This document shows, piece by piece, positions 6,015-22,375 of a stretch of DNA of 24,551 nucleotides (position 1 is its first letter; every line of letters starts with the position of its first letter). The position numbers were made by a program, and so were the translations under genes. The stretch comes from Candidatus Iainarchaeum sp. (lineage in GTDB: Archaea; Iainarchaeota; Iainarchaeia; Iainarchaeales; Iainarchaeaceae): the NCBI GenBank assembly GCA_038895675.1, contig JAWANB010000006.1, forward strand, positions 1-24,551. The letters run 5' to 3'. The notes beneath the pieces are model-generated. The model did not search any database. It saw only the letters and a program-made list of their open reading frames with translations, and had not been told where the DNA came from.

Positions 6015-6103
6015 AAAATTGAATAAAAAAGTAATATGTAAAAATTGGTCTTTGCAAAATATTTTAAGTAATTCATAAAAAGGCGTTGCCAATTATTATT
6101 TGT

Positions 6104-7780
6104 ATGAGTCGCTTTATTGAAAAAGAACTTAAATCTTTGTTAGAAAAAGTAGTTTCTAATAATCCTAAAGCCAAAACCTCGGTTTTGGAAGAAGCCTACT
6201 TTTTTTCTAAGATTGCTCACAAAGACCAAAAACGTTTGTCAGGAGAACCATATTTTTCTCATCCTTTAGCAGTCGCAAATTCCCTAGCAGACTTTGGTTT
6301 TGACGAAATAGTTGTTTCTTCTGCTTTGTTGCACGACGTTGTAGAAGACTCCAATATTAGTTTAGCAGAATTAAGACGCCTTTTCGGCAAAGACATAGCA
6401 AATTTAGTTAGCGCTTTGACCAAATTGGATTTAGTAGCTTTCAGGTCAAGGAAAGAACACACCGCCGCTAACGTTGTTAAAACAATAATAGCTTCTTCCA
6501 AAGACTTGCGAGTCCTTATAATAAAGCTTTTTGATAAACTTCACAACCTTGAAACACTCTCTTACTTAGACAAAGAAAGAAGAATCAGAATAGCATCAGA
6601 CGCCCTCTTAGTATACGTCCCTATAACTCAACGCCTTGGCTTGAATTTTTTAAAAAGAAAAATGGAAGACTTGTGCTATGCTAACCTTGAACCACGAGAT
6701 TTTAAAAAATTCAAAAAATCGTTGATGCCTTTCAGCAGAGCCAAAGACAAAGAAATATCAAAAATAATTAAAACCCTAAAAAAACAAAGATTTACTAAAG
6801 ATTGGTCGTTTTTGACTTTCTGTAAGTCGTTTTATTCATTGAGAATGAAAATGCGAGTTCGTGGAAAAAAAATCGAAGAATTGAACGACATAAAAGTTTT
6901 GAAGATTATTGTCCCATCAAAAAAAGATTGTTACTTTGCATTAGGTGCAGTCCATGAAATATTCAAGCCAATACCTAAAAAATTCAAAGACTATATTGCA
7001 ACTCCATCATATCTTTACCAGGCTTTGCACACCCAAGTAATAAGTCCAAAAAACAAGCCTGTAAAAATTTACATTCAATCCAAAGAAATGTTTGAATTAG
7101 GCGAATACGGAATAATCTATTTATTCAAATCAAAAAGCAAAAGAATCCAAGAATTCAAAAAAATATTTTATCTCAACAGAAACGTAAAATACAACGACAG
7201 CAAAGAATTGATTAGCGATCTAAAACTCGACTTTTTAAACAAGTCTATTGTAGTATTCACAGCTAATGGGGAAATGATAAAACTACCAAGCGATTCAACA
7301 GTAATTGACTTTGCTTATCTTACAGACCCAACAGTTGCAGATAAGTCAATTAAAGCCGAAGTTAACGGAAGAATAGTCCCACTTTGGACAAAACTATTTG
7401 ACGGAGACAGAGTAAAAGTAATACACGCAAAAAAACCAACAATACAAATAAGTTGGCTTTGCTTTGCAACCTCCGAAAAAGTAAAAAAAGACATAGAAAG
7501 CACACTAAAAAACAGCATAATACCATTAGAAATTTCAGGACACGTAAAATTCAGAATTGACTCAATCGACAAACCAGGCTTAGTAGGAAAACAAGCAAAA
7601 ATTCTTGCTGACAACGGATTCAACATAGAATCAGGAATAACAAAAGTAAACGAAGACAGAAAAACAGGTTATTCAGAATTCATAGTAAAAAACCTAAAAG
7701 GCTCTAATTTACAAAAAGCAATAGAACAACTAAAAAAAATGAAAGAAACAATAAAACTCAACGTAGACTATTTTAAATAA
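6104..7780 (+). CDS. Long RelA/SpoT homologue (HD hydrolase - degenerate synthetase - TGS - ACT)
   Basis: HKDQKRLSGEPYFSHP, ALLHDVVED, IKLFDKLHN; DCYFALGAVH, KFKDYIA, YQALHT; TGS VFTANG..IDFAY..VNGRIVPL; ACT DKPGLV..NGFNI. ATG at 6104. Confidence 0.92.
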   Translation: MSRFIEKELKSLLEKVVSNNPKAKTSVLEEAYFFSKIAHKDQKRLSGEPYFSHPLAVANSLADFGFDEIVVSSALLHDVVEDSNISLAELRRLFGKDIANLVSALTKLDLVAFRSRKEHTAANVVKTIIASSKDLRVLIIKLFDKLHNLETLSYLDKERRIRIASDALLVYVPITQRLGLNFLKRKMEDLCYANLEPRDFKKFKKSLMPFSRAKDKEISKIIKTLKKQRFTKDWSFLTFCKSFYSLRMKMRVRGKKIEELNDIKVLKIIVPSKKDCYFALGAVHEIFKPIPKKFKDYIATPSYLYQALHTQVISPKNKPVKIYIQSKEMFELGEYGIIYLFKSKSKRIQEFKKIFYLNRNVKYNDSKELISDLKLDFLNKSIVVFTANGEMIKLPSDSTVIDFAYLTDPTVADKSIKAEVNGRIVPLWTKLFDGDRVKVIHAKKPTIQISWLCFATSEKVKKDIESTLKNSIIPLEISGHVKFRIDSIDKPGLVGKQAKILADNGFNIESGITKVNEDRKTGYSEFIVKNLKGSNLQKAIEQLKKMKETIKLNVDYFK

Positions 7781-7821
7781 AGTTCAACATTTTTAATCAG
7801 TTTAGTAAAACAATATTTGAA

Positions 7822-8066
7822 GGGCCCGTAGCTCAGTTTGGATAGAGCACCTGCCTTCTAACCCTTTTCTTTTCGTTGGCACGAAAAGAAAAGCGTTAAT
7901 GGAAAAGAAAAGTGCAAGTTTTCTTTTTTCCATTGAAAGAAGAGCGTTAACGAAAAAGAAAGATGACCATTTCTTTCTTTTTGCTAGGAAGCGTTAATGA
8001 AAGTTTCTTTTTCATAAGAGAAGGGAAGTAAGCAGGGGGTCGAGGGTTCAAATCCCTCCGGGTCCG
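7822..8066 (+). tRNA. tRNA-Arg(TCT) with a 170-nt intron at position 37/38 (exons 7822-7860 and 8031-8066)
   Basis: GGGCCCG-TA-GCTC-AGTTTGGATA-GAGC-A-CCTGC-CT-TCT-A / A-GCAGG-GGGTC-GAGGG-TTCAAAT-CCCTC-CGGGTCC-G. BHB: CTTC 7855-7858 pairs GAAG 8025-8028, with TAA bulges at 7859-7861 and 8029-8031. No encoded CCA. Confidence 0.93.
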
Positions 8067-8205
8067 CATTAACCCTTTTCTTTCCTTTCACCAAGGAAAG
8101 AAAAGCGTTAACGGAAAAGAAAGGTGGTGTTTTTTTTTCTTTTTTTTTATTGATGGGTTTTTTTATCAAGGAAAGGTTGTGTTTTTTTTCTTTTTTTTAT
8201 TAATG
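7861..8205 (+). repeat. Array of purine/pyrimidine hairpins punctuated by AGCGTTAA, inside and downstream of tRNA-Arg
   Basis: AGCGTTAA at 7892, 7943, 7990 and 8104; perfect 13-bp stems 7864-7876/7881-7893 and 8075-8087/8093-8105; direct repeat GAAAGGTKGTG(T)nC(T)nATTRATG at ~8119-8155 and ~8171-8205. Confidence 0.85.
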
Positions 8206-8313
8206 AAGTTTAGTGTTATTTGTGAAGAAAGGTGATTATTTTTATTTTACCATGTAAAAAGAAAAATTGCTGAGAAAGGCAGATTATTAAATAAAATTGT
8301 TTTAGAGATTTTT

Positions 8314-10011
8314 ATGTTCGAAGAAGCTAAAGTTGTTTTGGCAAAGGCGCTTTCAAAAACCAATTCAAGAACTGATTTTTTTAGTTTGCTTGAATGCCCT
8401 TACGACAGGTCTTTCGGAGACTTTGCTTTGCCTTGCTTTAAGCTTTCTCATGAAAAAAACCCTAATCAAACAGCTTTAGAATTGAAAGATAAATTGGTTT
8501 TGCCTAAAATTTTTAGGTCTTGTGAAGTCAAGGGACCTTACTTAAATTTTTTTTTCAACGAATTAGAAGTAGTTAAAAAAATTGTTCCAGCCATAATTTC
8601 CCAGAAAAGTGCTTATGGCAAGGCAAAAAGAAAAAGAGAAAGAATTATTGTAGAGTATTGCCAAGCAAATCCTATGAAAGCTTTTCATATTGGCCATACT
8701 CGTAATATTTGTTTGGGTGAAGCAATAGCAAAAATCTTCGAATACTTTGGCGAAAATGTTTTTAGAGTAAATTATTGTGGTGACGTTGGGCCTCACGTGA
8801 GCAAATCAATTTACGCTTATCGTTATCTTTCTCAAGAGCCAGAGCCTTTTTCTCTGGCAGAAAAAGAAAAGTGGCTAAACAAGTTGTATGCTTTGGGTGA
8901 AAAGGCTGTTTCGGAAGATAAAGCATTGCAAGAAAAGATGCGTGAAATGGTTGTTTTGCTTGAAAAAGGCGATAAAGATTTGAAAAAAGATTGGCTCTAC
9001 TTGCGTTCTATTAGCTTTGATTGTTTCAATAGAATTTTTGAACAGCTTGGAACAAGGTTTGACAAAATCATTTGCGAAAGCGAAGTTGAGAAAGAAGGAA
9101 TAAAAATTGCTTTAGACCTTGAAAAGCAAGGCTTTGCAAAAAGAGATCAAGGCGCAATTATTGTGGATTTAGAGTCTTATGGTTTAGGCAAGTTTTTGAT
9201 TTTAAAGAGTGATGGCGCTGCCCTGTATTCTACAAAAGACATAGCTCTCGCCAAGCTTAAAAAAACAGAGTTAAACGCAATTAAGTCTTACAACATAGTA
9301 GGTTCAGAACAATCTTTTTACTTTAAGCAGTTGATCAAAACTATAGAGCTTCTCAACCAAATTAAGAAAGATTATTGTGAAACCATTCATTTGCCTTACG
9401 AGTTAGTAAACGTTGAAGGAGCCAAAATGTCTTCTAGATTAGGCAACGTCATAACTTATACTGACTTGTTTGAAACGATTTTTAACAAAACTTTGGAAGA
9501 AACAAAAGCAAGGCATTCTGATTGGCCTAACGAAAAAGTTTTTAATGTTGCTGAAAAAATAGCTTTGGCTGCTTTAAAGTATGGAATGCTTTCACAAGAT
9601 AGAAACAAAACTTTGGTTTTCAATTGGGAAAAAGCTATAAAAATGGAAGGAGAAACAGGGCCTTTCATATTGTATAGTTATGCAAGAGCTTCAAGTATTT
9701 TGCGAAAAAAAAGTTTTGATTCTTTGCCAAAAAAATTTGTGCTTGAAACAAAAGCGGAAAAAGACTTGGTTGTTTTGTTGGCAAAACTTGATTTTGTTGT
9801 AAAACAAGCTTATGATTATAAAGCGCCTAACAAGTTAGCTCAGTATTTGATTGACTTGAGCAAGTCTTTCAATGCTTTTTATAGAGATTCTCCTGTTTTG
9901 TCTTGTGAAGGTGACCAATTGAAAACTAGGCTTTCTTTGGTTTATGCTACCACATTAATGCTTGAATTAGGTTGTAGTTTGCTAAACATTTCTTTGGTTG
10001 AAGAAATGTAA
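8314..10011 (+). CDS. argS: Arginyl-tRNA synthetase
   Basis: FGDFALPCF, VEYCQANPMKAFHIGHTRN, KSDGAALYSTKDIA, KMSSRLG, GETGPFILYSYAR. Confidence 0.97.
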   Translation: MFEEAKVVLAKALSKTNSRTDFFSLLECPYDRSFGDFALPCFKLSHEKNPNQTALELKDKLVLPKIFRSCEVKGPYLNFFFNELEVVKKIVPAIISQKSAYGKAKRKRERIIVEYCQANPMKAFHIGHTRNICLGEAIAKIFEYFGENVFRVNYCGDVGPHVSKSIYAYRYLSQEPEPFSLAEKEKWLNKLYALGEKAVSEDKALQEKMREMVVLLEKGDKDLKKDWLYLRSISFDCFNRIFEQLGTRFDKIICESEVEKEGIKIALDLEKQGFAKRDQGAIIVDLESYGLGKFLILKSDGAALYSTKDIALAKLKKTELNAIKSYNIVGSEQSFYFKQLIKTIELLNQIKKDYCETIHLPYELVNVEGAKMSSRLGNVITYTDLFETIFNKTLEETKARHSDWPNEKVFNVAEKIALAALKYGMLSQDRNKTLVFNWEKAIKMEGETGPFILYSYARASSILRKKSFDSLPKKFVLETKAEKDLVVLLAKLDFVVKQAYDYKAPNKLAQYLIDLSKSFNAFYRDSPVLSCEGDQLKTRLSLVYATTLMLELGCSLLNISLVEEM

Positions 10012-22263: not shown

Positions 22264-22375
22264 GGGGCTGTGGTCTAGCTTGGTTAGGATTCAGCGTTCG
22301 GGTGGTTTTTGGTTTAAATCGCTTTTTTCTTTCCAGAAAAACGCTGCGGCAGGAGTTCGAATCTCCTCAGCCCCA
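22264..22375 (+). tRNA. tRNA-Pro(CGG) with a 38-nt intron (22303-22340)
   Basis: GGGGCTG..CAGCG-TT-CGG-G / A-CGCTG-CGGC-AGGAG-TTCGAAT-CTCCT-CAGCCCC-A; relaxed BHB (TTCG/AGAA with one G.A mismatch; bulges GGT and AAA). Confidence 0.9.

Follow-up and report, generated by a model that had tools for sequence, protein, structure and literature searches.

A dispersed hairpin repeat with a mirrored purine tract inside and behind tRNA genes of a Candidatus Iainarchaeum genome

The tRNA-Arg(TCT) locus and its two module copies

The window analyzed here is a stretch of 24,551 nucleotides, contig C6 of the Candidatus Iainarchaeum genome G000 (839 kb in 43 contigs, about 32% G+C, 92% complete). It carries a tRNA-Arg(TCT) gene with a long intron, followed by the arginyl-tRNA synthetase gene argS. 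Copies of a short repeat, referred to as the module, lie at the start of the intron and directly behind the tRNA. Module scores are those of R1, a covariance model that was built from 40 modules, preceded by a motif scan, and run over the organism's own genome. The locus contains the following features.

7822-8066 (+), whole tRNA-Arg(TCT) gene, by hand reading of the sequence
7822..7860 (+), 5' exon of the tRNA with A37 as its last base, by hand reading; orthologues in relatives are called Arg tct
7861..8030 (+), intron of 170 nt, about three tandem modules of falling quality (repeat families D1-D4)
7859..7915 (+), intron module 1 at the start of the intron, R1 76.4 bits: TAACC 7859-7863, pyrimidine (Y) arm CTTTTCTTTTCGT 7864-7876, loop TGGC 7877-7880, purine (R) arm ACGAAAAGAAAAG 7881-7893, linker CGTTAATG 7894-7901, mirror tract 7902-7915
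7916..7966 (+), intron module 2, degenerate, with linker CGTTAACG at 7945-7952; R1 35.4 bits, E 1.1e-4, motif-scan anchor 7944
7992-7999 (+), third linker copy in the intron
8031..8066 (+), 3' exon with discriminator G8066 and CCA not encoded, by hand reading; ARAGORN puts the gene end at 8067
8070..8127 (+), trailer module 1, 2-4 nt behind the tRNA, R1 76.1 bits: TAACC 8070-8074, Y arm CTTTTCTTTCCTT 8075-8087, loop TCACC 8088-8092, R arm AAGGAAAGAAAAG 8093-8105, linker CGTTAACG 8106-8113, mirror tract 8114-8127
8128..8285 (+), decayed co-oriented units of the trailer array that fill the tRNA-argS spacer (families D1, D3, D5), with a T9CT9 run at 8130-8148
8314..10011 (+), argS, context outside the element (Pfam tRNA-synt_1d, DALR_1, Arg_tRNA_synt_N)

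The tRNA gene escaped ARAGORN at default settings, which reported no tRNA in the window. With long introns allowed the gene was found and mislabelled Pyl, the anticodon labels of this program being unreliable for long-intron genes. Neither the gene nor the repeat had an Rfam match at the gathering score, and the sole Rfam match in the window was a tRNA at 22264-22375. According to hand numbering, the intron occupies the canonical position 37/38 (anticodon loop C-U-U-C-U-A, intron from 7861, A38 at 8031). Hand folding allows a bulge-helix-bulge motif with a 4-bp CUUC/GAAG central helix and two 3-nt bulges (UAA and UAA). This motif was not part of the minimum-energy fold (-82.8 kcal/mol when constrained versus -88.9 kcal/mol, with one of the forced pairs being a mistaken C-A). 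Contig sets from four DNA runs agreed without any difference over 7600-8115, the stretch to which their coverage was limited.

A repeat search of the window returned the two module copies as direct repeat D7 and inverted repeats I2 and I3. Two copies with perfect 13-bp stems, two paired differences between them, and unlike loops had been described in the initial annotation, and all of this is indeed present in the sequence, the paired differences falling on stem positions 10 and 12. Folded as DNA, the intron copy and the trailer copy each beat 200 of 200 shuffles (z of -4.7 and -3.4). The decayed repeat of about 52 nt that had been noticed downstream was recovered in families D1 and D3, with spacings of 51, 52, and 56. 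Another suggestion, that GCATTAA (8066-8072) mimics the punctuation motif, found no support: G8066 is the tRNA discriminator, TTAA is the module's own 5' flank, and the analysis gave no evidence for such a motif.

Some neighbors of the locus deserve mention in their own right. A full-length RelA/SpoT-type protein (HD_4, RelA_SpoT, TGS, ACT) is encoded directly upstream of tRNA-Arg and argS, at 6086-7777 (+); long RSH enzymes are unusual in archaea. The tRNA-Arg(TCT) gene lies directly upstream of argS both here (7822-10011) and in several relatives (L052, L059, L014, L021), and the spacer of just 20 nt in the same-genus genome G001 makes co-transcription possible. The tRNA at 22264-22375 (+; Rfam 46.8 bits, 42-nt insert) is a second intron-bearing tRNA, which looks like tRNA-Pro(CGG) when compared with that of L072. 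Its short intron contains a small pyrimidine/purine hairpin, CGCTTTTTTCTTTCC-AGAAAAACG, a possible vestige of a module that went unscored by R1.

Module anatomy, covariation and the mirrored purine tract

The anatomy of the module was established from 85 R1 matches (E<=1e-7, 83 of them distinct), taken from 63 sources that were chosen as best pattern or model matches and not at random. The module is 57 nt long and consists of NAAC-C, a 13-nt pyrimidine arm, a loop, a 13-nt purine arm, the linker CGTTNNYG, and a purine tract. A basal helix of 4 bp (N-AAC with GTT-N) is followed by a conserved C.C mismatch, present in 70 of 82 distinct modules, and then by the 13-bp hairpin; a 3-nt spacer precedes the purine tract. 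Two such half-modules in inverted arrangement make up the full element, the termini of which (NAACC...GGTTN) are placed against the neighboring exon or gene.

In the hairpin and basal helix, 96.9% of the cells were paired, compared with 53-65% in slid controls. Both sides varied in 14 of the 17 pairs, a count reached by none of 500 shuffles, although the copies are related to each other and the shuffle controls therefore overstate independence. The closing pair N1:N5 occurred in all four Watson-Crick forms (CG 45, UA 24, AU 8, GC 3). In some trailer copies (L030:1390-1530 (+), L038 (-)), the 8-nt linker is split by an insert of about 50 nt made of G+C-rich hairpins, between GCGTCC and GCGG, and the linker thus tolerates large inserts.

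The purine tract beyond the linker repeats the purine arm in reverse, as a mirror. Among 72 unique anchor matches, 49 had a hairpin of at least 9 pairs, and in these 536 of 623 positions agreed with the mirror; the other 23 anchors were left out of the count as chance or degenerate. In 38 distinct types, tracts matched their own mirrored arm at 11.39 of 14 positions, the mirrored arms of other modules at 9.71, and the unreversed arm at 5.87, and none of 10000 permutations reached the observed value. Mirror identity was 0.879 in register and fell to 0.40-0.57 when the tract was slid by 1-3 positions. Positions 10-12 switched jointly between T:A+A, C:G+G, and G:C+T. The two window copies are themselves an example, since at stem position 10 the intron copy has T:A with A, whereas the trailer copy has C:G with G. 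At the four variable positions, the Y arm and the tract, read in parallel, agreed in 89.2% of the cells for 40 modules and in 94.2% for 83 modules, compared with 45-67% in slid controls.

No polymerase produces a mirror repeat by copying, and selection on a physical contact is therefore needed to account for it. The initial annotation had attributed maintenance of the structure to either selection or template-switch copying. Selection on the fold is the better half of that proposal, given the 14 of 17 pairs and the mirror tract, while template switching drops out because it cannot yield a mirror.

Among known structures, it is the triplex that demands such a mirror relation. Judging from the three-strand covariation, the single-stranded module is predicted to fold, more probably as DNA than as RNA, into a pyrimidine-purine-purine intrastrand triplex of class II (purine motif). 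As Holder et al. 2015 (PMC4666352) describe it, a class II motif comprises a pyrimidine stem, a purine stem, and then another purine stem, the mirror image of the one before it. The motif search described there took stems of 6-15 nt and loops of 1-6 nt, and purine-motif triplexes are stated not to form in RNA. The module has its stems in this order, and their 13 nt fall within the range, but its second loop of 8 nt is outside that for loops, and 5 nt of this loop (the C.C mismatch and the 4 bp) are aligned with the 5' flank, making the triplex geometry a prediction only.

Two observations favor a constraint on DNA over one on the transcript. Sense-strand G.T pairs (8) were as rare as A.C pairs (9) in about 1390 pair cells, so that the excess of G.U that would mark selection at the RNA level was not found in this set. 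Moreover, the tRNA-associated copies number 67, and the 24 of them that run antisense to their tRNA have the same architecture as the others.

Distribution within the genome and among relatives

In its own genome, R1 found 24 matches at E<=0.01, all within six loci. Five of these are tRNA genes, namely Arg-TCT (intron and trailer) and the introns of Ser-GGA, Cys-GCA, Ser-GCT, and Tyr-GTA, and the sixth, on contig C20, is an array that reaches the contig end. For comparison, the 39 tRNA genes called by ARAGORN cover about 4.1 kb of the 839 kb. The copy in the tRNA-Tyr(GTA) intron is diverged, and the tRNA-Ser(GGA) intron contains three identical 50-nt tandem units.

Comparison of the window with the rest of the genome by blastn revealed close relatives of both copies at other loci. 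Window 7858-7944 and C12:4420-4506, in the tRNA-Ser(GCT) intron, are identical at 86 of 87 positions. Window 8070-8128 and C20:273-215 are identical at 59 of 59 positions, and window 8070-8136 aligns over 68 columns with C7:168-235, in the intron of tRNA-Cys, at 97% identity (1 mismatch, 1 gap). The intron copy and the trailer copy of the window, by the same program, have 26 nt in common and no more. As each copy is near-identical to other loci and yet unlike its neighbor, the two belong to different subfamilies and did not arise by local duplication. To judge by these alignments and by same-genus genomes whose tRNA-argS locus has neither copy, the intron copy and the trailer copy are separate acquisitions.

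The array on C20 (locus L005, C20:1-380 (-)) stands alone. Its modules, four or more in the same orientation, set in about 10 nt beyond a TATA-like TTTAAAAATATAA and continue to the contig end, where the array is cut off. A diverged extra module lies upstream at 328-380, and an rpl3-like ORF starts divergently nearby. No exon was seen beside the array in the 600 nt of sequence at hand. Contig ends (C7:1, C20:1) and N-masked stretches (L015, L023, L047) fall inside the repeat arrays. The repeats evidently break short-read assemblies, and the copy numbers are therefore lower bounds.

In the set of 85 matches, 30 are 5' halves of introns on the strand of the tRNA, and 14 are 3' halves of introns on the other strand. 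Another 13 are trailer copies, whose NAAC end lies between -5 and +4 nt relative to the 3' end of the tRNA. The leader side accounts for 10, all of which turn their NAAC end to the 5' end of the tRNA (8 of them at -2 to 0, the other 2 about 205 nt off). Flank copies that abut a tRNA thus have the NAAC end facing the exon in 21 of 21 cases (13 of 13 trailer, 8 of 8 leader), and in none of the 85 matches did the tract end face a tRNA. Intron copies begin 0-5 nt from the 5' splice site, and every one observed occupies the canonical 37/38 site or a position near it. The remaining 18 matches have no tRNA within 300 nt. Further copies follow 23S rRNA and SRP RNA, and rpl3-like and rpl11-like ORFs are preceded by arrays. 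The idea that the element is more than an intron is borne out by this dispersed family in introns, leaders, trailers, and intergenic DNA.

Association with tRNA genes was examined further in the high-copy genome G004, for which all 17 new places among the matches listed were fetched as 16 regions. A tRNA was associated with 6 of these freshly sampled regions and not with the other 10, indicating that the association is strong but not exclusive. Clustering of model matches at tRNA genes, one of the checks proposed in the initial annotation, is seen in the organism's own genome (5 of 6 loci). With respect to ORF ends, the intergenic copies of G004 followed no rule and were found in mixed contexts. 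Two of them, L076:502-558 (-) and L077:500-556 (-), are preceded by a similar G-rich stretch (...GGGGGTGCATTGCCGGTCC...), which possibly represents the 3' terminus of a so far unrecognised small RNA, or else the end of a paralogous gene.

A covariance model scanned over this and related genomes had been the check proposed for the initial reading, and it brought to light further copies in the genome and in its relatives, with strong covariation. R1 matched 21 of 23 genomes of the family, with 8-80 matches each. The same-genus genomes G001 (85% complete) and G002 (95% complete) had no R1 match at all. Their orthologous tRNA-Arg(TCT) genes have introns of 30 nt (G001) and 27 nt (G002) with the same GGAAG 3' part, and in G001 the spacer from the tRNA to the start of argS is 20 nt. 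A short intron in congeners free of the module means that the intron is older than the element and that both window copies are lineage-specific. As far as the sequences tell, the presence of the copies here and their absence from the congeners would fit gain in the one lineage and loss in the other alike.

A 20-mer pattern matched 16 of 22 other family genomes, with a reversed-pattern control near zero. Beyond the family, in 215 genomes of the phylum, the pattern gave mostly single matches with 2 mismatches, near the level of the reversed control. In IMG/VR there were 6 exact 20-mer matches with R1 scores of just 18-25 bits, and two alignments (25.4 and 24.5 bits) were without most of the hairpin. 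Viral carriage was rejected, all 6 matches being taken as chance.

Origin and possible roles of the module

We favor, with moderate confidence, the reading that the module belongs to a dispersed DNA repeat without transposase, similar to MITE or REP elements, which settles in introns and spacers, and that the window copies are independent members of this family. The elements would enter existing bulge-helix-bulge introns, from which splicing removes them, and spacers against gene ends, the few sites that a compact genome tolerates. Settling would follow a route independent of a transposase, and settled elements would expand through tandem slippage and then decay. In the window, one copy would have entered the pre-existing short tRNA-Arg(TCT) intron, right at its 5' splice site, and a copy of another subfamily would have entered the 20-nt tRNA-argS spacer. 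Inverted half-modules would form the full element, the NAACC...GGTTN ends of which would behave like terminal inverted repeats. What the sequences show is membership in a family, covariation of the structure, the mirror relation, the orientation of copies that abut exons, presence or absence between congeners, and near-identity of copies from unrelated loci; mobility of the elements, the triplex, and tolerance of the copies through RNA processing are what we infer.

Terminal inverted repeats, as expected of a MITE, are found in the introns, where 14 opposite-strand 3' halves occur beside 30 co-oriented 5' halves. Inspection of the junctions by eye revealed no target-site duplications. A search of G000 (92% complete) for a reverse transcriptase (PF00078) found none, and the Y1 transposase (RAYT, PF01797) had 0 matches in this genome, with controls matching in 6 of 14 genomes. 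We know of no mobilising enzyme and of no binding protein for the module. Two other candidates were also considered. Against a transcription terminator, suggested by the T-rich arm past tRNA 3' ends, we note that single-copy tRNAs have the same arm inside their introns, where efficient termination would be ruled out; the idea was rejected on this argument alone. A C/D-box guide RNA in the intron found no support, as no C or D boxes were seen by eye.

Simple tolerance would predict a looser placement than the one observed, within 5 nt of mature tRNA ends in 21 of 21 cases, and this may hint at an RNA-linked origin or at a function in RNA processing. The same abutment speaks for the idea that the module works in the maturation of stable RNAs. 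A self-contained hairpin right at each cleavage site (5' end, splice sites, 3' end) would then shield the tRNA body against its AU-rich flanks or offer the sites to RNase P, splicing endonuclease, or tRNase Z, and a leader copy and a trailer copy in inverted orientation could pair into a processing stem. The position of intron copies 0-5 nt from the 5' splice site and the copies behind 23S rRNA and SRP RNA agree with this idea, as does a hand drawing in which the module's 5' arm pairs alternatively with the 3' end of the intron to give the outer bulge-helix-bulge helix. We nevertheless think it unlikely. Two same-genus genomes do with short plain introns and without any copy, showing that the module is dispensable, and 10 of the 16 sampled G004 regions have no adjoining tRNA. 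Opposite-strand tRNA-associated copies would be transcribed as the complement, G.U is as rare as A.C (8 versus 9), unlike in most selected RNA helices, and the mirror tract is left without a role. The mirror-repeat and hairpin layout, which points to a non-B DNA fold, and the strand-symmetric mismatches, which fit a constraint at the DNA level, agree with another idea, that the module is a structural DNA element of use to the host where genes are heavily transcribed, hairpin or triplex extrusion under transcription-driven supercoiling acting as a torsional sink, boundary, or pause site. Bacterial BIME/REP elements bind gyrase, and a similar torsional or boundary role has been proposed for them. 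Copies beside tRNA, 23S rRNA, and SRP RNA genes, together with the arrays that precede rpl3-like and rpl11-like ORFs, would suit such a device, but copy numbers that range from 0 to 80 among close relatives fit a parasite better than a housekeeping function, and we judge this alternative to be quite improbable.

Full introns composed of two inverted half-modules that are able to pair also recall split or permuted tRNA genes. The modules would then be relics or tools of such genes, with complementary inverted copies, one following the 5' half and the other preceding the 3' half, uniting the separate exons for trans-splicing, and the C20 array, which lies about 10 nt past its TATA-like sequence and runs off the contig, would belong to a half gene. 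However, every tRNA seen is contiguous, no exon adjoins the C20 array in 600 nt, and many copies are nowhere near tRNAs, so that we hold out very little prospect for this explanation. Least credible of all is the view, taken in the initial annotation, that the 3' exon sits like one unit inside a longer local array whose two hairpins diverged in place by compensatory mutation. It can appeal to the co-orientation of the copies, 211 nt apart, and to units of about 51 nt on either side of the exon. It founders on the subfamilies of the two copies, each of which has its nearest, near-identical relatives at other loci and not next door, and on the congeners, whose locus has neither copy.

Returning to the settling of a transposase-less repeat in introns and spacers, close counterparts are the BoxC/PIT/TMECO repeats, intrastrand triplex motifs that Holder et al. 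2015 (PMC4666352) describe from E. coli and further bacteria. As presented in that paper, these are likewise dispersed and short, with a Y arm, loop, R arm, loop, and a second purine tract antiparallel to the first, and they are conserved across related genomes with no function assigned. Their motif, as given there, is G/C-rich (CCCTCNCCC...) and has 9-nt stems and a 3-nt second loop, whereas the module is A/T-rich and has 13-nt stems. The module further differs in its covarying 4-bp basal helix, the conserved C.C mismatch, the 8-nt linker, and the archaeal host. It also abuts tRNA exon ends and fills introns, while the word 'tRNA' is absent from the main text of PMC4666352. With the bacterial REP/REPIN/BIME elements the module has in common that they are short intergenic hairpin repeats at gene ends, often in inverted pairs and in variable copy number between relatives. 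Unlike these, it occurs in a genome without RAYT/Y1 transposase and inside tRNA introns, and it has the mirror tract and triplex-type covariation.

In Thermoproteales, near-identical introns in different tRNAs of one genome have been reported under the name of 'transposed' tRNA introns (Fujishima et al. 2010, as summarized in the review PMC4090602). The mechanism is called unknown in that summary and is judged to act at the DNA level. The 86 of 87 identical positions between the Arg-TCT and Ser-GCT introns are a case of the same kind. In contrast to the transposed introns as the review describes them, the module is found outside introns as well (trailers, leaders, after rRNA and SRP RNA, intergenic), its intron copies are at or near the canonical 37/38 site, and it has a defined covarying fold. 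The introner-like elements of eukaryotes, which are spliceosomal and transposon-derived, offer a parallel in that a small non-autonomous repeat supplies or enlarges introns that host splicing then removes (as outlined in PMC11282704). The module differs from the elements outlined there in that a protein endonuclease cuts at the bulge-helix-bulge and in that, at the one comparable locus, it entered a pre-existing intron. A full-text search, to which subscription journals were largely closed, found no paper on such a repeat in archaeal tRNA genes.

We also put forward a more far-reaching proposal, as a tentative and rather doubtful one. The module, as a natural purine-motif triplex, might be the terminal repeat of an archaeal 'introner', a DNA element without transposase that docks its NAAC end exactly on exon or gene ends, enlarges and perhaps seeds bulge-helix-bulge introns, and brackets tRNA exons on both sides.

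In practical terms, standard tRNA finders overlook tRNA genes that bear the module, and assemblies break at the repeats. The three-strand covariation would be rare comparative evidence for an intrastrand triplex maintained in nature. The gain and spread of archaeal tRNA introns is a question still open according to the review cited above (PMC4090602), and the repeat offers a concrete lead. Here the filler of the intron is a recognisable folded repeat, near-identical in unrelated tRNAs, present also outside introns, and cleanly absent from congeners, so that insertions can be dated and mapped. If the proposal of an archaeal introner were true, it would provide a traceable route to the gain of archaeal tRNA introns, and possibly to the splitting of tRNA genes.
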